A DNA stretch of 64,000 bases from Escherichia phage FEC14. The stretch lies in the sequence record MG383452; one strand, 5' to 3'. Position 1 is the stretch's first letter, and every line of letters begins with the position of its first letter. The position numbers were made by a program, and so were the translations under genes. Below the pieces are notes generated by a model. It was not told where the DNA came from. It searched no databases and saw only the letters and a list, made by a program, of their open reading frames with translations. Below are positions 4,795-63,708 of this stretch, piece after piece.

Positions 4795-5910
4795 TTATGC
4801 ATCCAATGTGTTCAAACGTTGTTGGGCAGCATTATAAAATTGTTCTGCAAGTTTGCAAACATTTTCAGGGCGCTGGATATTGTTGGCTGCGCGGATATCA
4901 TTTTTCAAGACTTCTACAGCATCAGTAGCCACCATCTCTTCAGTGACTTCTACCTTCTCGGAAGCAACAGTAATCGTCCGATCGATGAAGTTGTAATCGA
5001 TGCATTTACAGCGCTTCAATGCGTCACAGAACTTTTCATAATGCTTGGCATTGTCACGGTTCTGTACAATCACCTTAACGATTTGCCCTTCAATACCCAA
5101 AACATTGTTTAACCAATCGGGGTCGATCCAATTACCTTCAGTATCAGAAGACATTTGTGTGTAGTCGTATTCCACGAACCGGAACAACGTTTGTTGTTCG
5201 TTGTTGGGGATAAACAATTCCCCGCCATTCATGTCGTCTACATAGAATCCTCGGTTCGTCCCGTCTTTGTGGTCTTCCCAGGTAAGATGATAAGGAGTCC
5301 CAATATACTGAATGTTACCTTCCATCGAACGGGTATGGAAATGTCCGGTATCCACGCGCTCGAATTTCGAAAGGAGCGCCAAGTCGATCTGACCTTTATC
5401 ACATACAGAGGACTGGTACATTTTGAACCCTGCCAACTCCAGATGCGCAAAACAGTACTTGGCGTCTGTATCTTGTATCGCTTTAATGGACGCATCATAG
5501 TTCTCTTTGTTAATCCACGGCAGTAGGAGGGTCTTGACACCTTCAATCATTACTTCAGTTGGTTCGCTGTAATAATGATAAACATCCGGTGCCAATTCAT
5601 TAAGATAAGAAGGCCAGTTAATGCGATTGGACTCTTCTAACGTGATATCATGGTTTCCAACGATGCCATTCCATTTGATACCCGCCTTTCTCAGGGCTGG
5701 CGTTAATTCATCTTTCAACCAATCTTTATCGCGACCATACATGAATTTGCGAACATCAAACGTATCACCAAATTGCCACACTTCTTTAATATCGGCGTCA
5801 ACCAATTCTGGAATAAAATAATTGATGAGATAATTCTTTATGAATTCTCGAACGTAACGGGAACCATTACGGCTCCCGATATGTAAATCGCCAATTTTAG
5901 CAATCGCCAT
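4795..5910 (-). CDS. 47: recombination nuclease subunit gp47 (Mre11/SbcD-like phosphoesterase)
   Basis: Phosphoesterase motifs GDLHIG, GDTFDVRK, VGNHD, GHFH align with T4 gp47 (GDWHLG, GDIFDVRK, VGNHD, GHFH). Confidence 0.9.
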   Translation of the reverse strand: MAIAKIGDLHIGSRNGSRYVREFIKNYLINYFIPELVDADIKEVWQFGDTFDVRKFMYGRDKDWLKDELTPALRKAGIKWNGIVGNHDITLEESNRINWPSYLNELAPDVYHYYSEPTEVMIEGVKTLLLPWINKENYDASIKAIQDTDAKYCFAHLELAGFKMYQSSVCDKGQIDLALLSKFERVDTGHFHTRSMEGNIQYIGTPYHLTWEDHKDGTNRGFYVDDMNGGELFIPNNEQQTLFRFVEYDYTQMSSDTEGNWIDPDWLNNVLGIEGQIVKVIVQNRDNAKHYEKFCDALKRCKCIDYNFIDRTITVASEKVEVTEEMVATDAVEVLKNDIRAANNIQRPENVCKLAEQFYNAAQQRLNTLDA

Positions 5911-6703
5911 TATTTTGTTGCTCCCGTTCTAATGCTCGTTTCTTTGCTTCTTCCCAATCTGGTTCCATAGAACATATTTCGTCTTCCAGATTGAATTGAG
6001 TAGAGCCGAAGTCATAGTCTGAATTATCTTCGGCGTCGGCGGTAATGGTATTTTCACTCTTTGTGAGACATTGAAGTATACCGCGAGGAATTTTCTTATT
6101 CTTTTCCTCTTCTTTGATGGCGATTTGCTTTTGGCGTTCCTTTTCGCGCTGTGCTTCTTTCTTAGTTTCAAAATTTCCGATACGCTCACGGAAGTCCATT
6201 GTTATACCAGTGCTGTCTACGAATGTCTGTTGCTGGAAGTCTGGGTCATCTGATAATGCAGCGAAACCACCTGCTTCTTCAAATGAACGCAACTTGATAT
6301 AATTGTGTTCTTCTTCACTGGTGAGTTTCTTGGCGAATGAACGATCGGCGCACATCGTTACCCAAGAGAAGAAATTGATTTTTCCTTTCTTGCCGATATG
6401 ACTGACGTCAAATGTATGGAGGTAACGAAGAATGTTAACAACGGCCTCACTGACCATGTCTTCGCGGTATGGATAATCACGATAGTTGTAGCGCATACTC
6501 ATGTTCTTAATAATCATCTGAACATTCATGGCCACATAATTGGGGATTCTTGGTAGGGGTGTTCCTTCGGCCAAAGCCTTTTTGCGAGCCGGAATCCAAT
6601 CTCTCAATATTCCAACAACACGGTCATTATCTTCGTCTGTGAAATATTTGGTGACGTTATCACCCCTGTCTACAAAATTCATACCCATCGTGATAATCCT
6701 CAA
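5897..6703 (-). CDS. 55: late-transcription sigma factor gp55-like, with extended charged C-terminal tail
   Basis: Central region (YNYRDY...LHTFD...FAKKLTSEEE) parallels T4 gp55 (FNFSGY...LHNFD...QRIKKERKE); sits directly upstream of gp47 as in T4 (55, alpha-gt, 47, 46). Confidence 0.55.
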   Translation of the reverse strand: MRIITMGMNFVDRGDNVTKYFTDEDNDRVVGILRDWIPARKKALAEGTPLPRIPNYVAMNVQMIIKNMSMRYNYRDYPYREDMVSEAVVNILRYLHTFDVSHIGKKGKINFFSWVTMCADRSFAKKLTSEEEHNYIKLRSFEEAGGFAALSDDPDFQQQTFVDSTGITMDFRERIGNFETKKEAQREKERQKQIAIKEEEKNKKIPRGILQCLTKSENTITADAEDNSDYDFGSTQFNLEDEICSMEPDWEEAKKRALEREQQNNGDC

Positions 6704-7242
6704 ATACCAATGAATTCATTGAAAGAACCAACGACTTTCTTGACCGAGAAACGGTTATTTTCAAGAACCATTGAACTATCTTCTTTGGCTCTAACGCTCC
6801 ACTGATCCGCAATTTCGTTGCCCATCGTTCCTGCATGACCTTTCACCCATTTTAATTCAAGTTCACAAATTGAACAAACTTTGTCATAATAATCGAACAA
6901 CTCGAGCAGAAGTTCTGTGTTCTTAGGCGGCATTCCTTCATATTCCCATTTACGACGCCACTCCAAAACGCTATTGATAACATATTGGCTGTCGGATATG
7001 ATGCGGGCTGGGGGAATGCAGCGTTCACCGCAATTAGAGAATTTCCATAGGATCTTCATTGCGTTTATAACCCCGAGTAACTCAGCTATATTGTTCGTTG
7101 ACGGCGGGGGTAAATACCCATAAAACACTTTCCATTGCTCTCCAGTGATTGGACTGATGGCAAATGCCCAACCAGCGGCTCGTGTCTTCTGAGGGGATGA
7201 TGCCCCGTCAGTGTATATTTCAATCATGTATAAGTATCCCAA
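6700..7242 (-). CDS. ribonuclease HI (bacterial RnhA-type)
   Basis: RNase H motifs IYTDGAS, NNIAEL, SDSQYVIN, VKGHAG..GNE.AD align with E. coli RnhA (IFTDGSC, NNRMEL, TDSQYV, VKGHAGHPENERCD). Confidence 0.8.
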   Translation of the reverse strand: MGYLYMIEIYTDGASSPQKTRAAGWAFAISPITGEQWKVFYGYLPPPSTNNIAELLGVINAMKILWKFSNCGERCIPPARIISDSQYVINSVLEWRRKWEYEGMPPKNTELLLELFDYYDKVCSICELELKWVKGHAGTMGNEIADQWSVRAKEDSSMVLENNRFSVKKVVGSFNEFIGI

Positions 7243-7269
7243 ACTGGTTTTATCGATGAGGAACGAATC

Positions 7270-8037
7270 ATGTCAGAACGCGCATATCGTTTCAGTCTGA
7301 CCGCCCCAGAAATTGAGCGTTTGCTCTTGTCTATAAATGATTCCATACAAAAGCTGGACATCATTTATGACTACACGGCGGGTGGGACTGAAGGTCAAGT
7401 CGCAGCTGCGTCAGCTGTCAAAAACATGTGGCTAAAACTTAATGAGATGGTCACAGGTGAAGGTCTTAAAGACGCAATCAATGCAGCTAACGACAGCAAC
7501 GTATTCACCGATTATTATAAGTCTATTTTAGATCGCGAAACTTGGAAATTTATTGGTTCTCCGGCAGATTTATTAGCAAGGGACGATATAGACACTTCCA
7601 ATTTTGAAGGCGGTGAAGTAATCCTCCTACAAAAGAACGCTTCGGGCAACCCAGAATTCCAATACTGGAAAAGAACTCCTGTGGCAGGAGGTGATCCAAT
7701 ATTTGGTTGGGAATCTGTTTATGAAGGAAACTCCAACGACTCTTCTATTGATATTCCGGTTGTTGGGACCAGCATACTGAAGACAATCCCAAAAGCATTG
7801 TTTCATATGGTCGAATTCAGAGTACACGCTCGAGAGTCTACCCTCGGTCATTGGCAGGACACTGATGGCAAAATCGGTTATCGTGGTGAAGATCTGATTT
7901 ATAGCCTGTATAATCATGTTCAAACCAAACCGATCGCAAATATATCTTTCAGCCAAGATGTGGACAATATGATTATCACGATAACGACACTTGAACCAAA
8001 TATCAAGTGCCATTTATCGTTTATTGCGGGTTATTAA
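7270..8037 (+). CDS. hypothetical protein (255 aa), one of the few plus-strand genes
   Basis: Long plus-strand ORF in the gap between two minus-strand genes, GAGGAA RBS before ATG; stop overlaps the DinG stop convergently. Confidence 0.5.
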   Translation: MSERAYRFSLTAPEIERLLLSINDSIQKLDIIYDYTAGGTEGQVAAASAVKNMWLKLNEMVTGEGLKDAINAANDSNVFTDYYKSILDRETWKFIGSPADLLARDDIDTSNFEGGEVILLQKNASGNPEFQYWKRTPVAGGDPIFGWESVYEGNSNDSSIDIPVVGTSILKTIPKALFHMVEFRVHARESTLGHWQDTDGKIGYRGEDLIYSLYNHVQTKPIANISFSQDVDNMIITITTLEPNIKCHLSFIAGY

Positions 8038-9755
8038 ACCTCAAACACTGCATCGGTGAACCAGGTTGGGAAGAATTCTGGGTTGCGCATCATAAGAGAT
8101 TCAAAGGATGAATCAATGATGTATGTCGCAGCCCAGTCATCAACACCCCTGACCGAACGCCCACACATTTGAACAATGCGCAGTACTGCATTGCGGAAAT
8201 ATGCCGACGGATCCACTGAATTGATATGTGCTATCAGTGGATCGCCCAGATAATCATAAGGGACTTTGATCAGTATTTGGAAACGGCTGTAATCCCCTTT
8301 GAAATCATAACCTTCTTCCATAGCCGGACTGGCAATGACGCATGGGGACTTTGTTCTAAAAGCATTTTCCATAATATCCATCAACGCCTTTCGGGTGCGC
8401 GGAACATGGATAAAATTCTGATATTTACTGAATTTTTGTATTGCCAAGGCGCGATCATAACTCACTGTATGGATAATGCCGGACTGACCTGGGTGGAACG
8501 CGATTATTTCATCAATATATTCCGTCAACCTTTTCATTTCATAGTCGCCCATATTGTTAGTCATCTTCACTATGGGCATATAGTTGACTTTTCTGTTTTC
8601 AATTGGGATAGGGTTGCCGATCTGAATGGAATGATAATCCCCCTGTCGAATACCCAATGAACGAGCATAAGAATCTATGCCGCAGATCGTTGCTGACATA
8701 TGAACGTGATAATCGGCTTTTCGGAATAACCCGAATTCGCTTACATCAGAAGGCATAACAGGTTTAAACCGGATAAAATCTTCCCCCTTTTCTTGCACAA
8801 TAAATGTACTTGCTTGGGTTTGTGACATAATACCGCAATAATCACTCAAGTTATGCAAGACATCTATAATGTCTGCGAGTTTCATCACTTGGCTTTCACT
8901 CAAGCGATCATCTTCGACCAATTCTTCAAGAACTTCCAACAAATTTTCTACTTTGAGATGGAGGTCTTCAAACATTGAATGTAGTTCACCAGACAAAGAA
9001 TATAACTTGCCCAGGACATAGTCCTTGGTGCGTTCTACGATATCACCAATGGTAGAGACGATCTCCTTGCCCTCAGGGATAGAACGCAGCCCCTCCACGG
9101 CCTTTGTATTGTATTCCATGATCGTGTGCTCTAGGAGCGTAGAGGGCATTTTATGGCACTCGTCAAGGATCAGCATATCGGAACGGTTTTCGGGCTTCAT
9201 GCAGATGGTTGTACACATTTCGATCATCATGGCAGCATTAGTACAACGCAATGATGAAATATCCGTCCACAAATTACGCGCCTGTACATAAGGACAGCGG
9301 CGTTTGCTACAATGCCCGTCACGGCATGCTATACGGCATTGGACAGCATTGTAATACACATCTGGATGTACGTGGCAACGATAGTTCTTCTTGCCTTTTA
9401 GGATGTCTATCGCCACCGCCTTTTCAGCAGCATACTGATCTTGCAGACCTTTGGTCGGGGTGCTGATAGAAGTGCGAAATTGCCCATAAGGATCAGCCTG
9501 TAAAACTAGATGGCGAATCACTTTATGAATGGTAGTGCCAATCAAAGATTTACCGACACCTGTCGGAGCTTCAATGATGACATGTTTAACCTTTTTGTTG
9601 ATAAGCGCATCTATGGCTTCGACGATGCATTCCATCTGGCCTGGGTTCGCTTTGTCATATGGGAATTCATCTTTGGTAAGGCGTTGTATTTCTTCCACAG
9701 GAACCTTACGGCCTATGGCGTCAATCGCCTTTCGGTGTTGATTAAATGCTGTCAC
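8034..9755 (-). CDS. DinG/XPD-family (Rad3-like) DNA helicase with Fe-S cluster cysteines
   Basis: Walker A APTGVGKS, DEAH box LILDECH, four-Cys cluster (CHVH...CRIACRDGHCSKRRCPY) typical of Fe-S helicases; AGGAGGAA RBS. Confidence 0.8.
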   Translation of the reverse strand: MTAFNQHRKAIDAIGRKVPVEEIQRLTKDEFPYDKANPGQMECIVEAIDALINKKVKHVIIEAPTGVGKSLIGTTIHKVIRHLVLQADPYGQFRTSISTPTKGLQDQYAAEKAVAIDILKGKKNYRCHVHPDVYYNAVQCRIACRDGHCSKRRCPYVQARNLWTDISSLRCTNAAMMIEMCTTICMKPENRSDMLILDECHKMPSTLLEHTIMEYNTKAVEGLRSIPEGKEIVSTIGDIVERTKDYVLGKLYSLSGELHSMFEDLHLKVENLLEVLEELVEDDRLSESQVMKLADIIDVLHNLSDYCGIMSQTQASTFIVQEKGEDFIRFKPVMPSDVSEFGLFRKADYHVHMSATICGIDSYARSLGIRQGDYHSIQIGNPIPIENRKVNYMPIVKMTNNMGDYEMKRLTEYIDEIIAFHPGQSGIIHTVSYDRALAIQKFSKYQNFIHVPRTRKALMDIMENAFRTKSPCVIASPAMEEGYDFKGDYSRFQILIKVPYDYLGDPLIAHINSVDPSAYFRNAVLRIVQMCGRSVRGVDDWAATYIIDSSFESLMMRNPEFFPTWFTDAVFEV

Positions 9756-9890
9756 GTTGTTCCTCCTTTGGATTCTGTTATAGTTTACCCGAATCCCAAC
9801 AACGAAAAAGCCGAGGCATTAACCTCGGCTTCTCCTTTTAGCCTTGCGCCGCTGCACTGCAGACATGCGCTGGGCCGACGCCTGGTGTGA

Positions 9891-10169
9891 TTACTGGCCG
9901 TTGGCAGCAGCTTTCAGACCTTCACCGACTTTGAATTTAACTACATTTTTCGCTTCGATCTGGATCTGTTGTCCGTTCAGCGGGTTGCGGCCAGTGCGCG
10001 CTTCCTGATGTTTAACTTCGAACGCGCCGAAGCCTACGAATTGGACAGATTGGCCAGCCGCGACTGCAGTTTTCACGCCATTGATAAAAGATGCAACGAT
10101 TTTCTCAGCTTCGCCTTTGGTCATACCCTGGGTTTGAGCGATGTGAGCGATAAAATCAGTACGGTTCAT
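9891..10169 (-). CDS. HU/IHF-family DNA-binding protein
   Basis: From internal Met (MNRTDFIAHIAQ...) aligns end to end with E. coli HU incl. FVGFGAFEV and RTGRNPLNG arm motif; track ORF has a 12-aa N-terminal extension judged spurious. Confidence 0.8.
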   Translation of the reverse strand: MNRTDFIAHIAQTQGMTKGEAEKIVASFINGVKTAVAAGQSVQFVGFGAFEVKHQEARTGRNPLNGQQIQIEAKNVVKFKVGEGLKAAANGQ

Positions 10170-10252
10170 TCGGATTACTCCAGTTAGTTGTTTACGATGT
10201 TTCACTACAAGAGGACTACAGCTTACCTAACAAATACTATTGAATAAAGCGT

Positions 10253-11047
10253 TTATTTGCCGACGTTTAGCATTTTACTTGAGCCTGAACCATCAACAAT
10301 CAGAGTACATTTCCCGCTGTTGGCGCAAGATTGCAACACCATGTTATATTCGTGTTGTAAATATTCAGGTGTCAGAGATGTCGTCAGTTTCTGATTCGCC
10401 CTGGCTTCTTGGTCTCGAATTTCAACGTTCTTTCTTGCTGTATCCAAACGTTTGTCGGCCATGACATTATCACGGATAGATTGCTCAATCGAAGGATCTG
10501 TCAGCGCCTTTTTGACCAACACGCGTGTGATTGTGAACATGCCAGGTGCAGCTGTTTCTAATTGCTGCTGGGTGCGTTCCTTGATCATCTTTTCTAACTC
10601 AGCCCGTTGGGTGTGAATTGTCATAGAATCCAAAGAGGAAACGGCGTCCATCGTTGAGGATGCTGCGGCGGTTTTAACCAGGTTGAATCCCACCGCTATC
10701 GTGCCGTCACCGAGTTCAGCGCTCTGACCTGCAAATTTGGTATGGAACCAAGGAACCTTCGCGACGTTCGGTGTGTAATAAACGTCCACATCCAGATCTT
10801 CCAAGGTCAGGTTGTCTTTGGCCTTTGGCGTCATTTTCGTCAGACTCACAACGGCTTCTTTGGTCGTGTAAACATCCACGCTTGAAACAAAGCTGGTGTA
10901 GATCCCCGCTGTTACAGGGTTCATGTCTACTTCACCCCATTGGGTGCGAACGCCGACATTACCTTCATCGATAACGCCACCACAACCAGAAAGTAGACTT
11001 GCAGCCAGAACCATAATTGCACCAAACACCAATTTCTTGAACATCAA
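10253..11047 (-). CDS. lipoprotein (264 aa), possible SPFH/band-7-like
   Basis: Signal peptide with lipobox LLSGC read in translation; downstream fold assignment is a guess. Confidence 0.55.
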   Translation of the reverse strand: MMFKKLVFGAIMVLAASLLSGCGGVIDEGNVGVRTQWGEVDMNPVTAGIYTSFVSSVDVYTTKEAVVSLTKMTPKAKDNLTLEDLDVDVYYTPNVAKVPWFHTKFAGQSAELGDGTIAVGFNLVKTAAASSTMDAVSSLDSMTIHTQRAELEKMIKERTQQQLETAAPGMFTITRVLVKKALTDPSIEQSIRDNVMADKRLDTARKNVEIRDQEARANQKLTTSLTPEYLQHEYNMVLQSCANSGKCTLIVDGSGSSKMLNVGK

Positions 11048-28978: not shown

Positions 28979-30481
28979 TTAGAGCGCCACTTTTTTCATT
29001 TTAACAGGGTGGCGCTCCATAAGATAAAATTTATATCTCTCATGAGAATGCCTGAGAGCATGGTTGTAGGAACCGTTGTAACGCAGGTTGTCTACCAGGT
29101 CCCAGATTCGCGCAACATCCTTAGAGGAATGCTGACGCATCAAACGCCCCAATGTCTGTATAACACGGATATAAGATTTGCTGGGATGGGCCAATATCAG
29201 ATGATGGAGTTTTTTGATAGATACGCCCTGTTGCATAGTACCATATGATGCTAACAGTGTTATATCTTCCCCTTCTTCCATAGCAGCCTGAATCTGTTTA
29301 CGAACTTCTGTCTTGACTTCCCCGTTGATGACGAATACGTTTTTCTTGACTGCCGATAGCATTTCATAAACCAACATCATGTGTGCATCGATACGTTCGA
29401 ACATGACTGCGACGTTCCCTTTCAAAGATAGAGCCATTCGGGCTATCAATTCATTGCGGCGTTCGTTAGCAATGAGGAATTCTATTTCCTTTTGATACTC
29501 AGCACCGTGCATTTCAATACAGTCTGCCATAGGATGTATGACTTCAATCATATTAACATTGATGTCTGCCGCATATCCTAGATCGATTAAATCGCGCGCT
29601 GTAATAATTTTATGATATGCGCCAAAGTGAGCAACGACTTGTAACCCTGCGACCTTTGTATTCGCCAGGGTTCCGGTTACTCCCAAACGTTGATCAGCGT
29701 TAATACAGTTGTTCAAGATGTAAGACAATTTATCTGATTTTGATGTATGTACTTCGTCAACGACGATATCTCCAAATTGATGGAACCACTCTTTGGGTTG
29801 GTTCTGGATACCTTGCCAAGTTGAAATAACTATGGGTTTGAAAATCTCTTTCGTTGCCCCTTCGTATATTGTCTGGACGTTCATCAATGGCTTCCATTCT
29901 GTCCCGTGGCTATATTCTTCGAAGTTGTCATACAACTGAGTCACCAAATGAATGGATGGTACAACAATTAACGTCCTCAGATTACTTTCGAGGGCATCTC
30001 TGCGTTGCCTGTAGTAACGCGCCATGATGTACAAAATAAAGGATTTGCCAGCACTCGTGGCAGCTTCGAGGACACATCTGCTTTGGCGTATTGCTGTGGC
30101 AACAGAATCAAATTGATAATCGCGGACAATCGCTTTTTGATATTGTTTGTTTTCGTCTCGGTACACCGCATTCAATGTATCGATGAACGCATGAATTTCT
30201 TCATCCGGAATGTCTTGAATATATTTTAAGGCCGGATCTAATTTGATGGTGTAACCGTTCATCTTACAGAATTTGAACACCTCAAATAACAGGCCGATGT
30301 CGATAAGCCCAGAACTCTTTGTGAACAACCGCACTACGCCGTCCCATTTACTGAACGGATTCGGTTGGAAATTAGGATCTTCAAATTTGAAGTAATCGTT
30401 GAGTTCTTCACGGATATAATCCTCGGCAAGGATCCGCATTCTAACTTCGTTCACTTTGACTATTTGGATCTCAGACATCAC
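28979..30481 (-). CDS. uvsW: UvsW SF2 DNA/RNA helicase
   Basis: ATSAGKS (Walker A), DEVH box, length 500 aa and overall colinearity with T4 UvsW (PTSAGRS, DECH). Confidence 0.85.
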   Translation of the reverse strand: MMSEIQIVKVNEVRMRILAEDYIREELNDYFKFEDPNFQPNPFSKWDGVVRLFTKSSGLIDIGLLFEVFKFCKMNGYTIKLDPALKYIQDIPDEEIHAFIDTLNAVYRDENKQYQKAIVRDYQFDSVATAIRQSRCVLEAATSAGKSFILYIMARYYRQRRDALESNLRTLIVVPSIHLVTQLYDNFEEYSHGTEWKPLMNVQTIYEGATKEIFKPIVISTWQGIQNQPKEWFHQFGDIVVDEVHTSKSDKLSYILNNCINADQRLGVTGTLANTKVAGLQVVAHFGAYHKIITARDLIDLGYAADINVNMIEVIHPMADCIEMHGAEYQKEIEFLIANERRNELIARMALSLKGNVAVMFERIDAHMMLVYEMLSAVKKNVFVINGEVKTEVRKQIQAAMEEGEDITLLASYGTMQQGVSIKKLHHLILAHPSKSYIRVIQTLGRLMRQHSSKDVARIWDLVDNLRYNGSYNHALRHSHERYKFYLMERHPVKMKKVAL

Positions 30482-30507: not shown

Positions 30508-31281
30508 TTAGCGATCCGCCCAGATTCCTTTCTGTTCTTTACCCATTTTGTGATACAGACGGACACGATCAAACATTTTAGAAATAACGTCTTTGCGATC
30601 GAATTCGATTATGGTGGGAACAAGGGCATTTTCGTTGGATATAATATTGATTAAACGCTCTATCTTGACATTAAACATTTGTTGAAACATGACTGAGTAT
30701 AGACACAATTGAATACTATAATCTTCTATCATGCTTCGAGTTTTTAGGGTGTTGGATGTTTTGAAATCGATTATGCTTGGAATTCCTTCGTAAACCCCGA
30801 TGAGGTCAACACGACCAGCAAGACCCAGGACTTCGCTATATAATGGAATCTCTTGTGCATATATCTTGCTCATTTTGTTAAGGTAGGGGAAAACCTGTTT
30901 GAACATAAACACGTATTCCCCTGCAGCTTCCAGAACTTCCTTCATTGGTCTGTTTTTGAGATACAACTCACAAGCCAAATGAAGTTTTTCCCCACGGTCT
31001 GCGCAACGATGTGTTTCTATATCAGCAGCTTCATGTCCCAACTTGTCCCGCCAGGCTTCTAACCATGTGTGGTCACCAGTACGCCCTAACATGGTCGTCA
31101 CTGAAGTTAGTTTGACTCCAGTGGGGGAAACATAGTGACGACCATTTTCGGTAGTTACGCAAGTCAGTTCCTTAAACGGCAAGGAATATTGCTGAAATGT
31201 GTGATGACGATTTTCAAAGTCATTAAGTTTGCGCAAAGCCTGTAGAGAAACCATTACATCCCATCCAAATATTTTCGCCAA
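30508..31281 (-). CDS. putative PD-(D/E)xK nuclease
   Basis: GRVDLIGVYEGIPSIIDFKTS fits D...(D/E)xK catalytic motif; located between uvsW and uvsY. Confidence 0.45.
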   Translation of the reverse strand: MAKIFGWDVMVSLQALRKLNDFENRHHTFQQYSLPFKELTCVTTENGRHYVSPTGVKLTSVTTMLGRTGDHTWLEAWRDKLGHEAADIETHRCADRGEKLHLACELYLKNRPMKEVLEAAGEYVFMFKQVFPYLNKMSKIYAQEIPLYSEVLGLAGRVDLIGVYEGIPSIIDFKTSNTLKTRSMIEDYSIQLCLYSVMFQQMFNVKIERLINIISNENALVPTIIEFDRKDVISKMFDRVRLYHKMGKEQKGIWADR

Positions 31282-32290: not shown

Positions 32291-32944
32291 GTGTTCCTGA
32301 CACGCGGATTCAGAAAATGGATCATGACGATGATAATGGTGCTTGCACTCACAAGTTGCCGTATCTTTGTCACGTCCGTCATTTCTGTAACCGACCTCTG
32401 GGATCCTGAAATCAGAACCATACCTGTTAACATCTCAGCCGACATTGATAAATGCAATAAAAATATTCTGAATCAAGTAGTATCTGATTTTCAGAACTTT
32501 CAGACTCTTCAAGCTGTTGGTTGTTTTGATGATAACAACCAGTCACTGAGACCATACTGGAAAACCACGATTCCCCTATTGAGGAAAGGTGACGAAGGAA
32601 AGATCCCATATCTATCCGCAAGTATTTATTACTCTCAGAATAATAGCATCATAGCGACTTTCAACCCTTCTTTCTTTGACAAACTCAGAAGGAATACTCA
32701 AGCAAGGGACGTAGAAATCACCAGAGACGTTGCAATATCATTTCAGATAGTTAATAACACCAAATCTCCGATCCGAATTGCCACTCAGGGTGTTTTCGTT
32801 AATGGATCTGCTGTAGGTAATGAAATGAACATCTATGAAATAAGACCAGGCGGTAAAGTATGGATTCGAATGAGTGATGTTGGGGTGAACTCCCTGGTGA
32901 TGGAAGGTATCGAACCAGTGGGAGTTCTCCCCGCTAGACATTGA
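32291..32944 (+). CDS. plus-strand lipoprotein (start likely GTG giving MFLTRGFRKWIMTMIMVLALTSC signal with lipobox)
   Basis: Lipobox LTSC after a hydrophobic segment; GGAGA RBS before an in-frame GTG; track ORF 32246..32944. Confidence 0.45.
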   Translation: MFLTRGFRKWIMTMIMVLALTSCRIFVTSVISVTDLWDPEIRTIPVNISADIDKCNKNILNQVVSDFQNFQTLQAVGCFDDNNQSLRPYWKTTIPLLRKGDEGKIPYLSASIYYSQNNSIIATFNPSFFDKLRRNTQARDVEITRDVAISFQIVNNTKSPIRIATQGVFVNGSAVGNEMNIYEIRPGGKVWIRMSDVGVNSLVMEGIEPVGVLPARH

Positions 32945-39447: not shown

Positions 39448-39454
39448 TATTTAG
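39448..39454 (-). promoter_or_regulatory. candidate late promoter CTAAATA (minus-strand sense) about 30 nt upstream of gp22
   Basis: Motif recurs upstream of several late structural genes. Confidence 0.45.
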
Positions 39455-39465
39455 TGAGCTGAAAT

Positions 39466-40665: not shown

Positions 40666-40672
40666 TATTTAG
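40666..40672 (-). promoter_or_regulatory. candidate late promoter CTAAATA upstream of the gp67-like ORF
   Basis: Motif about 28 nt upstream of ATG. Confidence 0.4.
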
Positions 40673-40679
40673 TTGAACT

Positions 40680-45448: not shown

Positions 45449-45455
45449 TATTTAG
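45449..45455 (-). promoter_or_regulatory. candidate late promoter CTAAATA upstream of gp18
   Basis: Motif about 40 nt upstream of the proposed gp18 ATG, just after the gp17 stop. Confidence 0.45.
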
Positions 45456-45458
45456 TGA

Positions 45459-49698: not shown

Positions 49699-49705
49699 TA
49701 TTTAG
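49699..49705 (-). promoter_or_regulatory. candidate late promoter CTAAATA upstream of gp14-gp17 operon
   Basis: Motif about 25 nt upstream of gp14 ATG. Confidence 0.45.
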
Positions 49706-49736
49706 TCAATCATTAATTCTTTTGAGGAATTGATAA

Positions 49737-56214: not shown

Positions 56215-56221
56215 TATTTAG
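56215..56221 (-). promoter_or_regulatory. candidate late promoter CTAAATA upstream of the 1612-aa gene
   Basis: Motif about 35 nt upstream of ATG. Confidence 0.45.
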
Positions 56222-56320
56222 TATACAGCCAACAAACAGATAGAAATAAAAACCCAGTTCCTCCACCTGATAGTTTTGAACTTCCAGTTCCTGTCAGGTT
56301 AACGAGACATAGCAAAAGAA

Positions 56321-63670: not shown

Positions 63671-63677
63671 GTATTTA
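63671..63677 (-). promoter_or_regulatory. candidate late promoter CTAAATACCCCAT upstream of the 710-aa tailspike
   Basis: Second copy of the shared upstream module. Confidence 0.45.
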
Positions 63678-63708
63678 GTCTGAACTAATCAAATTTATGA
63701 ACAAAGGT

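Follow-up and report, generated by a model that had tools for sequence, protein, structure and literature searches.

Organization and conservation of the locus

In Escherichia phage FEC14 (MG383452), of which a 64,000-nt stretch was analysed (hereafter, the window), genes for a bacterial-type RNase HI and a DinG/XPD-family helicase flank a 255-aa gene on the opposite strand. A preliminary description of the sequence had presented the three as one block and left the 255-aa gene uninterpreted. The source genome belongs to a Kuttervirus (CBA120/Vi01-like) with 99.5-99.7% identity to CBA120, SFP10 and Se_EM1, and all three open reading frames were present where they had been placed, with the stop codon of the 255-aa gene overlapping that of the helicase as described (Table 1). 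Conservation across relatives, proposed as a check, was extensive: the 3.5-kb stretch carrying the three genes matched 269 phage records, in 259 of which it was almost complete. Because of these 269 records, the homologues of the 255-aa protein and its detection in virions of two phages, the ORFs are real genes and not chance reading frames.

Table 1. Features of the RNase HI-helicase region, with positions in the window
Feature	Position	Strand	Basis or remark
gp55-type late sigma factor	5897..6688	-	PHROG 234 'late sigma transcription factor', E 1.7e-53
RNase HI, 175 aa	6700..7227	-	PF00075, PHROG 531, PDB matches, alignment
RNase HI catalytic codons	D7 7207-7209; E49 7081-7083; D79 6991-6993	-	
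RNase HI catalytic codons, continued	H131 6835-6837; D141 6805-6807	-	
Late-promoter-like -10 element TATAAGTA	7229..7236	+	Sole such site in window; would serve 255-aa gene
GAGGAA ribosome-binding site of 255-aa gene	7258..7263	+	6 nt ahead of ATG
Virion structural protein, probably late, 255 aa, 28.5 kDa	7270..8037	+	Virion mass spectrometry of homologues, Foldseek, hhalign
Shared stop TTAA	8034..8037	both	255-aa gene TAA, + strand, 8035-8037; helicase TAA, - strand, 8034-8036
XPD/DinG-superfamily SF2 helicase, 573 aa	8034..9755	-	PF13307, PDB profile search, Foldseek
Helicase motif VI QxxGRxxR (QMCGRSVRG at 529)	residues 529-536	-	
Helicase DECH box	residues 198-201; 9153-9164	-	
Predicted [4Fe-4S] cluster segment	9294..9377	-	C127, C140, C149, C154
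Helicase Walker A APTGVGKS	residues 63-70; 9546-9569	-	
GC-rich hairpin	9808..9831		Between HU-like and helicase genes; TTTTTCGTT follows on - strand
HU-like DNA-binding protein	9891..10205	-	PF00216, E 1.2e-29; upstream gene of leftward string

Both enzymes belong to a leftward string on the minus strand that runs, in order, HU-like protein, helicase, RNase HI, gp55, gp47 and gp46, the last two being a Mre11/Rad50-like nuclease. The gp55 gene, whose CBA120 counterpart (orf120) is annotated at 792 nt, starts 11 nt past the RNase HI stop codon, and its ribosome-binding site overlaps that stop. The hairpin downstream of the HU-like gene is its terminator on the minus strand; in LIMEstone1 a terminator is annotated at the equivalent place. 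Hundreds of public genomes already carry annotations for all three genes, and both enzymes are ordinary core genes. LIMEstone1 (ORF092-094) and Sajous1 (gp202-204) carry the identical three genes in identical arrangement, annotated as RNase HI, 'unknown/putative structural protein' and ATP-dependent helicase; these published annotations do not mention a gp9-like domain or Fe-S cysteines, and otherwise show no substantive difference.

RNase HI

Assignment of the first enzyme to RNase HI was borne out. The protein scored 85.3 bits against PF00075 (cut-off 25.8), covering profile positions 4-139 of 141, matched PHROG 531 (E 2.3e-61), and matched E. coli and Shewanella RNase HI in the PDB at about 1e-9. 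The mechanically listed ORF spans 6700-7242 on the minus strand, but the true start is almost certainly the ATG at 7225-7227 and not 7242: the gene is annotated at 528 nt in LIMEstone1 and Sajous1, and the homologues align from the methionine of this ATG. The protein then opens MIEIYTDG. In an alignment of E. coli RNase HI with five phage sequences (that of the window and four homologues), D7, E49, D79 and D141, together with H131, were the invariant counterparts of E. coli D10, E48, D70, D134 and H124. As judged from this alignment the enzyme is catalytically intact, with a full DEDD plus histidine active site, and would be expected to cleave RNA in RNA:DNA hybrids.

Compared with E. coli RNase HI (rnhA; PDB 1rch/2rn2 family), the phage enzyme shares the PF00075 domain, 31% identity and the motifs TDG, NN..E, DSQY and KGHxG.xxNExxD. 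It differs in a 9-residue insert after helix A, in a C-terminal extension of ~20 aa ending ...VVGSFNEFIGI that is conserved among phage homologues, and in a basic protrusion that is present but 6 residues shorter, so substrate handling may differ. The rnhA equivalog (NCBIfam NF001236) was rejected at 67.6 bits against a cut-off of 160, leaving the protein as a family member only.

DinG-like helicase

The helicase gene starts with GTG preceded by AAGGAGG. Profile and fold searches agreed with its previous assignment to the DinG/XPD family, both with E. coli DinG as best match. Of the two results named beforehand as refuting, another helicase family and an RNase H without the DEDD residues, neither was obtained. 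The protein scored 46.1 bits against PF13307 (Helicase_C_2; cut-off 25.3), and a PDB profile search returned E. coli DinG first (3.7e-19), followed by XPD, Rad3, FANCJ and CHL1. An AF2 model (pLDDT 88.5) was closest in Foldseek to E. coli DinG (6fwr, E 1.6e-25, TM 0.67), and the top 41 PDB fold matches were all DinG, XPD, CHL1 or CasDinG. The modelled fold is a four-domain one, with two RecA-like domains, an Fe-S domain and an arch. SF2 motifs, Helicase_C_2 and the helical arch insertion are common to the phage helicase, E. coli DinG and archaeal and eukaryotic XPD, as is the location of a four-cysteine cluster between motifs Ia and II.

C127, C140, C149 and C154 were invariant in 31 helicase sequences, down to 32% identity, and are predicted to be the [4Fe-4S] ligands. 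When aligned with DinG, C127 corresponds to C120, C149 to C199 and C154 to C205, whereas either C140 or C144 falls at C194. The Kuttervirus helicase carries C144 as an extra cysteine. Relative to E. coli DinG the phage protein is shorter (573 versus 716 aa), only about 15% identical, and has a compact Fe-S segment with 27 residues from first to fourth cysteine versus 85 in DinG. It forms part of its own virus-wide clade (PHROG 2488), found in 496 phage records. The NCBIfam equivalogs for DinG (57.7 versus 598 bits) and YoaA (53.7 versus 680 bits) were both rejected. Polarity is presumably 5'-3', as in the family, whose other members also suggest activity on R-loops and D-loops.

The preliminary description had further proposed that the enzymes might act against host defences, a suggestion that found two weak hooks. 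The first is a full-length match of the helicase to a single PADLOC model (PDLC01439, 'typeIV_DinG, CAS-IV-A associated', E 6.1e-50), and the second a 35%-identical homologue, which on its 262-kb contig has neighbours encoding Tad3, Acb3 and SAM-lyase domains. Under such a scenario the helicase, with or without RNase HI, would counteract host immunity by dismantling the crRNA:DNA R-loops of CRISPR effectors, or as a decoy or relative of the type IV helicase CasDinG, structures of which also appeared as fold matches (E about 1e-19 to 1e-20). However, E. coli DinG outranked CasDinG as a fold match, CasDinG was absent from the PDB sequence-profile matches in which E. coli DinG and XPD were present, the canonical Csf4/CasDinG models of PADLOC matched the helicase weakly (20-26 bits), and RNase HI had no PADLOC match. 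Genomic context also points elsewhere, as the helicase gene lies within a conserved replication, recombination and transcription string in all Ackermannviridae examined and adjoins gp41 and UvsX in other T4-like phages. We therefore regard a function in anti-defence as very improbable. A CasDinG locus, which would have type IV cas genes (csf1-3, csf5) and a CRISPR array beside the helicase, was rejected as an identity for the region, the helicase neighbours being the HU-like protein, the virion protein, RNase HI and gp55, and no cas genes were found in any context examined.

The 255-aa gene encodes a virion protein

Counterparts of the 255-aa gene are CBA120 orf123, LIMEstone1 ORF093 (82% identity) and Sajous1 gp203 (97%), among 38 close and about 59 distant homologues of the protein. 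Published virion mass spectrometry confirmed LIMEstone1 ORF093 as a structural protein (8 peptides, 40.8% coverage), and 39 spectra of Sajous1 gp203 were reported from CsCl-purified virions. From this literature on its homologues, the gene encodes a virion component; the spectra speak to presence and not to position within the particle.

The protein has a helical N-terminus and, after a small middle section, ends in an eight-stranded beta domain (about residues 157-255). Its AF2 model had a pLDDT above 90 at residues 160-250 and low confidence for the N-terminal 155 residues. The best full-length PDB fold match in Foldseek was T4 gp9, the baseplate wedge protein that connects the long tail fibres (1qex, E 3.6e-8); hhalign paired residues 157-253 with gp9 176-280 (E 8.2e-5, probability 61%), and BLASTP aligned the two C-terminal domains in the same register. 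PF23618, the gp9/10 C-terminal domain, gave weak matches in five of 35 family members (best E 0.004), although a Pfam search with the window's own protein gave none. Three weak but concordant lines thus suggest a C-terminal domain like the one in T4 gp9/gp10. The similarity would end there: PF07880 (the gp9/10 N-terminal coiled coil and middle sandwich), which spans residues 7-168 of T4 gp9 and scores 247 bits against it, matched none of the 35 family members and has no sequence counterpart in the family, and the middle region is much smaller than in gp9.

Like T4 gp9, the protein is found in the virion, would be expressed from a late-type promoter and is of similar size (255 versus 288 aa). 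It is probably located at the baseplate periphery, as a trimer with a gp9/gp10-type C-terminal docking domain. Unlike T4, kutterviruses have tailspikes instead of long tail fibres, and any docking partner must therefore differ from that of gp9. Also unlike gp9, its gene lies outside the baseplate wedge cluster; in CBA120, other baseplate genes are likewise scattered as oppositely oriented inserts among replication genes.

These findings bear on whether the 255-aa protein could be an accessory subunit of the helicase or of RNase HI, the whole block forming one machine. Adjacency and the deep synteny of the three genes are all that speak for it. Against it, the protein is abundant in purified virions, whereas both enzymes (Sajous1 gp202, the helicase, and gp204, the RNase) are absent from the published table of detected Sajous1 virion proteins; its fold is of the fibre/baseplate type; its gene is on the opposite strand with a late-promoter motif; and Cygsa01 keeps a homologue without a DinG-like helicase at that locus. 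Such a module is effectively refuted, and the three genes do not work as a unit. Describing them as one block was misleading, as the middle gene is a virion gene, probably late and with a putative late promoter of its own, and not a partner of the enzymes.

Putative late promoter and convergent gene arrangement

The motif TATAAGTA lies immediately next to the start codon of RNase HI (CAT at 7225-7227) and deviates at two positions from the local consensus CTAAATA, the Kuttervirus late-gene consensus derived here being aCTAAATAy. At equivalent positions we found TATAAATA in LIMEstone1, where a 'putative late promoter' is annotated, CTAAATA in Vibrio phages K474 and VAP7, and TTAAATAC (TTAAATA type) in Cygsa01. 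Across these five phages including that of the window, which range from close to distant relatives, the motif lies 26-45 nt upstream of the start codon, a range that narrows to about 34-45 nt when only the four closer relatives are counted. The window holds seven occurrences of ACTAAATA versus 1.7 expected, all on the minus strand and mostly just upstream of late structural genes. A -10 element without a -35 element ~30-45 nt before the start is the layout of gp55-type late genes and was found for the 255-aa gene, suggesting that its transcription is gp55-dependent. The gene would thus have a gp55-type promoter of its own, located in the 42-bp spacer beside the RNase HI start, and be transcribed late. 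A search of the literature found no expression data for any Kuttervirus, so the distinction between 'early/middle' and 'late' genes rests on promoter motifs and analogy to T4.

The convergent junction of the 255-aa and helicase genes leaves no room for an intervening terminator, and the hairpin beyond the helicase gene is the first terminator-like structure in the path of any plus-strand late transcript. This allows a reading in which the antisense, stop-overlapping layout is itself functional, and late transcription shuts down the helicase and the rnh-55-47-46 string. A late gp55 transcript from the TATAAGTA site would be antisense to the helicase gene over its full length, and the promoter would in addition occupy the abutting start region of RNase HI; acting by antisense RNA or by transcriptional interference, the two together would amount to negative feedback on gp55 itself. 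Consistent with such coupling, a terminator scan found no plus-strand site between 8037 and 9808, and Kuttervirus and Limestonevirus share the conserved spacer sequence TATCCCAAACTGGTTTTAT. LIMEstone1, K474 and Cygsa01 also keep the opposite orientation and a stop that overlaps a convergent gene by 4 nt (CTAA or TTAA), although the 255-aa homologues of the latter two are only about 30% identical. Yet neither tight packing nor a 4-nt overlap is unusual in a phage genome, and the promoter and terminator scans were at chance level. Moreover, the convergent partner is another ORF and not the helicase in VAP7 and K474, nor is it the helicase in Cygsa01, where an ORF also intervenes between promoter and RNase HI. 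Regulatory coupling is therefore unlikely.

A probable role in phage replication

In T4, RNase H removes lagging-strand primers and Dda is an accessory 5'-3' helicase at the fork, where obstacles are cleared by Dda in T4 and by DinG in E. coli. Neither RNase HI nor a DinG-type helicase is known to be part of the classical T4 replisome, as the preliminary description had stated; the point was reinforced by tblastn, which detected neither T4 rnh (FEN family) nor Dda in the complete CBA120 genome, a search that very distant homologues would escape. UvsW was present at 28979-30478 of the window, and in metagenomic phages helicase homologues immediately follow gp41 and UvsX within T4-like replication modules. 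In E. coli, DinG clears R-loops in living cells, and dinG defects are rescued when RNase H is overproduced (PMC2770101).

Given this context, the earlier proposal of R-loop or primer processing by the two enzymes is plausible. RNase HI would most likely remove the primers of Okazaki fragments and the RNA of origin and transcription R-loops, in place of the FEN-type T4 RNase H, while the DinG-like helicase would most likely unwind R-loops and D-loops and clear obstacles from the path of the fork. The likely functional counterparts of the phage RNase HI and helicase are T4 RNase H and Dda, but they belong to unrelated families, and the correspondence is one of role and not of homology.

We consider it likely that the locus consists of two early or middle DNA-metabolism genes interrupted by an oppositely oriented late structural gene, and, with the same likelihood, that it belongs to the conserved genome backbone of the Ackermannviridae. 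The resemblance to gp9 is only a modest new point, but it contradicts a review stating that Ackermannviridae lack gp9-gp11.

Gene organization of the RNase HI-helicase locus

The preliminary description had grouped an RNase HI gene, an Fe-S helicase gene and a 255-aa gene on the opposite strand into one block. All three ORFs were found at the locus, and the convergent helicase and 255-aa genes do meet on overlapping stop codons, as it had claimed; the block itself did not hold, as the three genes are not one unit. RNase HI and the helicase share a closely packed minus-strand string with genes of replication, recombination and transcription, in which the RNase HI stop lies 11 nt from the gp55 start, gp55 and gp47 overlap, and a 2-nt gap separates gp47 from gp46. 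The CBA120 counterparts are orf120 (gp55 late sigma factor, with gp47 and gp46 ahead of it), orf121 (RNase H), orf123 (hypothetical protein; the 255-aa gene), orf124 (DNA helicase) and orf125 (DNA-binding protein). The region 6500-10000 was 99.5-99.7% identical to the Salmonella and Escherichia kutterviruses Se_EM1, S8, BSP101, SFP10 and CBA120, and was present in 269 phage records, nearly full length in 259 of them. The locus belongs to a well-sequenced, already annotated phage family, Ackermannviridae, and as all genes here are already annotated in public records, finding them is ordinary.

Features of the locus and of other regions of the window
Feature	Position	Strand	Sequence or remark
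gp55/gp47 overlap	5897-5910		14 nt
RNase HI gene	6700-7227	-	175 aa
46-aa ORF (rejected)	7224-7364	-	
Late-promoter-like element of the 255-aa gene	7229-7238	+	TATAAGTATC
Late-promoter-like core ahead of the 255-aa gene		+	TATAAGTA; candidate antisense-interference promoter
255-aa (gp9-like) gene	7270-8037	+	GAGGAA ribosome-binding site, 6 nt ahead of ATG
Convergent stop overlap, 255-aa gene and helicase	8034-8037		TTAA
Helicase gene	8034-9755	-	573 aa; GTG start, AAGGAGG before it
Hairpin and T-run	9808-9831		Ends HU gene
ACTAAATA copies (examples)	39448-39455, 40666-40673, 45449-45456, 49699-49706, 56215-56222, 63672-63679	-	
TTCAATAA copies	12588, 16192, 23406, 35250, 35272, 36421, 36795 (examples)	-	
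UvsW-type helicase gene	28979-30478	-	PF21241 (UvsW_N)
Second gene listed with the UvsW-type gene	30508-31254	-	
Counterpart of CBA120 orf170	32291-32944	+	GTG start

The ORF listing began RNase HI at a TTG (7242), which we rejected in favor of the ATG at 7227 (MIEIYTDG...), because LIMEstone1 and Sajous1 annotate 528-nt genes and homologue alignments begin there. In RefSeq CBA120 (NC_016570), orf121 is too short at 429 nt (142 aa) and loses the first catalytic Asp (D7). The 46-aa ORF was also rejected as a gene: it had no PHROG match, overlapped the orf123 start, and was missing from the CBA120, LIMEstone1 and Sajous1 annotations.

LIMEstone1, Vibrio phages VAP7 and K474 and Pseudomonas phage Cygsa01 all retained the order gp46, gp47, gp55, RNase HI and opposite-strand gp9-like gene (the 255-aa gene, named for the similarity described below); the one departure was in Cygsa01, where an additional minus-strand ORF separated RNase HI from the gp9-like gene. 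The gp9-like proteins of VAP7, K474 and Cygsa01 were 29-35% identical. One small ORF separated the gp9-like gene from the DinG-like helicase in VAP7 and K474, and in Cygsa01 the next helicase, judged by size and neighbors, appears to be UvsW-type beside uvsY and not DinG-like. Convergent stop codons again overlapped by 4 nt (TTAA or CTAA) in LIMEstone1, K474 and Cygsa01, whichever the partner gene. From these synteny differences, we regard the adjacency of helicase and RNase HI as inherited Ackermannviridae backbone order and not as universal linkage.

RNase HI and the DinG-like helicase

RNase HI scored 85.3 bits against Pfam RNase_H (cut-off 25.8) and matched PHROG 531 ('Rnase H') with an E value of 2.3e-61, and its nearest solved structures were bacterial RNase HI enzymes (about 1e-9). 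The DEDD residues (D7, E49, D79, D141; D10, E48, D70, D134 in E. coli) and H131 (H124 in E. coli) were present and invariant in an alignment of E. coli RNase HI with the LIMEstone1, K474, VAP7 and Cygsa01 homologues, which upholds the identification. Compared with E. coli RNase HI, the basic protrusion of the phage protein is 6 residues shorter, 9 residues are inserted, and a conserved tail of roughly 20 residues extends the C-terminus; the protein falls under the NCBIfam rnhA equivalog cut-off. Judged by its sequence, it is a genuine type 1 RNase H, not an rnhA orthologue. Phage homologues keep the tail (window 6700-6780; ...VVGSFNEFIGI), which E. coli RNase HI lacks. T4 RNase H, an unrelated protein, ends in ...NSINEF, and Kuttervirus gp32 has ...SIDEFEQF close to its C-terminus. 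These sequences might represent a common replisome-docking motif or be coincidental.

The helicase passed the Pfam Helicase_C_2 cut-off and matched the NCBIfam DinG, YoaA and Rad3 models far under their equivalog cut-offs. Walker A, the DECH box and QxxGRxxR were invariant in a 31-sequence alignment reaching down to 32% identity, as were exactly four cysteines (C127, C140, C149 and C154). With the profile of this alignment, a PDB search returned E. coli DinG first (3.7e-19), then Rad3/XPD, FANCJ and CHL1. C127, C149 and C154 paired with C120, C199 and C205 of DinG, and the position of C194 was filled by C140 or the Kuttervirus-specific C144; these four DinG cysteines are the cluster ligands. 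The AlphaFold2 model was confident (pLDDT 88.5, pTM 0.87), and its best PDB fold match was DinG (6fwr; E 1.6e-25, TM 0.67), followed by other DinG, XPD, CHL1 and CasDinG structures, with RecQ-type folds much worse. From the sequence profile, the invariant cysteines and the predicted fold, the earlier assignment to the DinG/XPD-family Fe-S helicases is therefore retained at superfamily level. The helicase falls in a virus-wide clade (PHROG 2488; 496 phage records) whose members include Ackermannviridae, PhiW-14, Rhizobium T4-like phages, haloarchaeal tailed viruses and jumbo phages. Homologues in other T4-like metagenomic phages were situated directly after UvsX and gp41, within a string of clamp loader, RegA, exonuclease, DNA polymerase, UvsX, gp41 and helicase; in one phage, the homologue was between nucleotide-metabolism and head genes.

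CBA120 encodes a T4-type replication set (gp43, gp41, gp59, gp61, gp32, gp44/62 and gp45) together with T4-type ligase, UvsX, UvsY and UvsW, and tblastn of T4 RNase H (FEN) and Dda against its whole genome gave no match. Where T4 has a FEN-type RNase H and Dda, Ackermannviridae have RNase HI and the DinG-like helicase; the two enzymes of the window have intact catalytic and cofactor residues. T4 origins use R-loops, and UvsW removes T4 R-loops. A UvsW-type gene, followed by a PD-(D/E)XK nuclease and UvsY, was found in the window, so the phage carries UvsW besides the DinG-like helicase. In E. coli, DinG clears R-loops in vivo, and dinG defects are rescued when RNase H is overproduced (PMC2770101); our literature search for studies of phage-encoded DinG returned bacterial and eukaryotic work only. 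R-loop or primer processing by the two enzymes is a reasonable proposal, in which RNase HI would remove primer and R-loop RNA and the helicase would serve as an accessory 5'-3' motor clearing R-loops, D-loops or transcription complexes, both probably as early or middle functions.

The preliminary description had also suggested action against host defenses. Here, the helicase and RNase HI would jointly form an R-loop-clearing anti-CRISPR or anti-defense device that strips or degrades guide-RNA:DNA hybrids of host effectors, and the helicase clade would be kin to a group of helicases that occur next to type IV-A CRISPR loci. Along its full length, the helicase did match PADLOC model PDLC01439 ('typeIV_DinG, CAS-IV-A associated'; E 6.1e-50), though this model may have been built from the virus-type clade itself, and canonical Csf4 models matched weakly (20-26 bits), with DinG and XPD the better sequence and fold matches. 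Similarly, a 35%-identical homologue lay among anti-defense genes, with Tad3, Acb3 and SAM-lyase domains (L012, a 262-kb contig of GCA_902725575.1), but no cas genes were near helicase homologues in the contexts examined, and we consider such a device very improbable. The contig is of jumbo-phage size, with the homologue at 8001-9614 and a Thg1 domain and IS605-type transposases also nearby. RNase HI and the helicase are annotated core genes of little import in themselves, showing that accessory roles of the replisome are filled by non-T4 protein families.

Putative late promoter of the embedded gene

With just 2 copies in the 64-kb window, the canonical T4 late motif TATAAATA was at chance level, and we therefore derived a local late motif from the upstream regions of structural genes. 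Upstream of the Kuttervirus gp22, portal, tube, sheath, gp14, orf209 and TSP2 genes, about 30-45 nt ahead of the start codon, aCTAAATAy or a close variant was present; the major capsid gene carried ACTAAGTAA. CTAAATA occurred 11 times on the minus strand of the window and once on the plus strand. All 7 copies of ACTAAATA were on the minus strand, mostly directly upstream of late structural genes (1.7 copies expected; 0/100 shuffles reached 7). This motif distribution suggests aCTAAATAy, and not the T4 motif TATAAATA, as the late-promoter core of Kuttervirus. A 42-bp spacer separates the divergent RNase HI and 255-aa genes; in it, the late-promoter-like element of the latter directly adjoins the start codon of RNase HI. 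Equivalent motifs were found in LIMEstone1 (TATAAATATC), K474 (ACTAAATATT) and VAP7 (TCTAAATACT), at a distance of about 34-41 nt from the ATG, and a little further upstream in Cygsa01 (TTAAATAC, about 45 nt); the sequence around the motif in the Vibrio and Pseudomonas phages was otherwise unalignable. The LIMEstone1 authors annotated a putative late promoter at the equivalent site.

Generic sigma-70 promoter and terminator scans of 6000-11000 returned counts at shuffle level, and a TATAAC box was seen ahead of the helicase ribosome-binding site. No plus-strand terminator-like site was found between 8037 and 9808, so the late transcript of the 255-aa gene may, speculatively, continue antisense through the helicase gene. 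Equally speculatively, minus-strand transcripts could reach RNase HI and gp55 only by running antisense through the 255-aa gene. A literature search for Kuttervirus transcriptomics returned nothing relevant.

Elsewhere in the window, TTCAATAA occurred 15 times (4.65 expected; 0/100 shuffles reached 15), with several copies directly upstream of small minus-strand ORFs, and might represent an element of early or middle promoters. The counterpart of CBA120 orf170 is an isolated plus-strand gene in a minus-strand region, abutting gp3 (tail completion) head to head; the 70 nt upstream of it showed no late-promoter motif.

A virion protein with a probable gp9/gp10-type domain

That the 255-aa gene encodes a virion structural protein is established by two published proteomic studies. 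Its LIMEstone1 counterpart, ORF093 (same position, 82% identical), is a 'confirmed structural protein' of 28.32 kDa, detected in virions by 8 unique peptides at 40.8% coverage (PMC3296691); the calculated mass of the window protein is 28.46 kDa. Sajous1 gp203 (97% identical) yielded 39 spectra from CsCl-purified virions, and the flanking gp202 (helicase) and gp204 (RNase) are missing from the virion protein table (PMC10892097). GenBank already labels the SeF6a gene 'baseplate wedge protein' and that of several other records 'structural protein'.

Direct sequence searches with the 255-aa protein gave no match in PDB, Pfam, NCBIfam or PADLOC, and a match to PHROG 3833, of unknown function. Close homologues (at least 55% identity) were confined to Ackermannviridae-like contigs, and an exhaustive profile search added about 50 more distant homologues of the same length. 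In the AlphaFold2 model, residues 1-155 were poor and a C-terminal eight-stranded beta domain was confident (pLDDT above 90); a repeat homologue search from the distant alignment had left just five distant sequences usable for modelling. The best PDB match of the model in Foldseek was T4 gp9 (1qex; E 3.6e-8), and gp9/gp10-type baseplate proteins, tail fibers and Mtd_N proteins matched in a viral structure library. By hhalign, residues 157-253 of the family profile aligned with gp9 176-280 (E 8.2e-5, probability 61%), and two-sequence BLASTP with T4 gp9 gave the same register (E 0.005; IANISFS against IANIAFS). PF23618 (gp9/10 C-terminal domain; gp9 residues 169-272) was matched by 5/35 family members (best E 0.004) and was the sole Pfam family matched by more than one of the 35. 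The family gave no match to the gp9/10 N-terminal domain, PF07880, and we therefore call the product a virion protein whose C-terminal domain is of gp9/gp10 type, rather than an orthologue of gp9. Separately, residues 64-88 (GLKDAINAANDSNVFTDYYKSIL) matched 6-9 tandem repeats in several metagenomic proteins of 500-965 aa, and this xxFTDxxKxxL-type repeat would fit a fibrous or trimeric structural protein.

The similarity to gp9 was overlooked in the literature because tblastn with T4 gp9 and gp10 finds no match in CBA120. Ackermannviridae have been reviewed as being without the peripheral baseplate proteins gp9-gp11 (PMC11721090), and the TSP4 anchor domain's partner on the baseplate was described as still unknown (PMC8825819); the 255-aa protein bears on both statements. 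A search for a cryo-EM structure of an Ackermannviridae baseplate returned nothing relevant. Other CBA120 baseplate genes (gp48/53, gp54 and gp26/5/25) are likewise opposite-strand inserts among replication genes. We postulate that the 255-aa protein is made late and incorporated in the virion, probably at the baseplate periphery. That it is the 'missing' gp9 equivalent of Ackermannviridae, a trimeric socket that would join either the TSP4 anchor domain or the unexplained prongs to the baseplate, is a tentative reading that we think possible without favoring it, more modest but likelier than an R-loop-clearing anti-defense device. What is modestly new here is the presence, in a family reported to lack such proteins, of an embedded late gene for a virion protein that has a gp9/gp10-like domain. 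A conserved virion protein with a docking domain of this type is an obvious candidate for the TSP4 anchor partner, and the question is relevant to host-range engineering of therapeutic and biocontrol phages.
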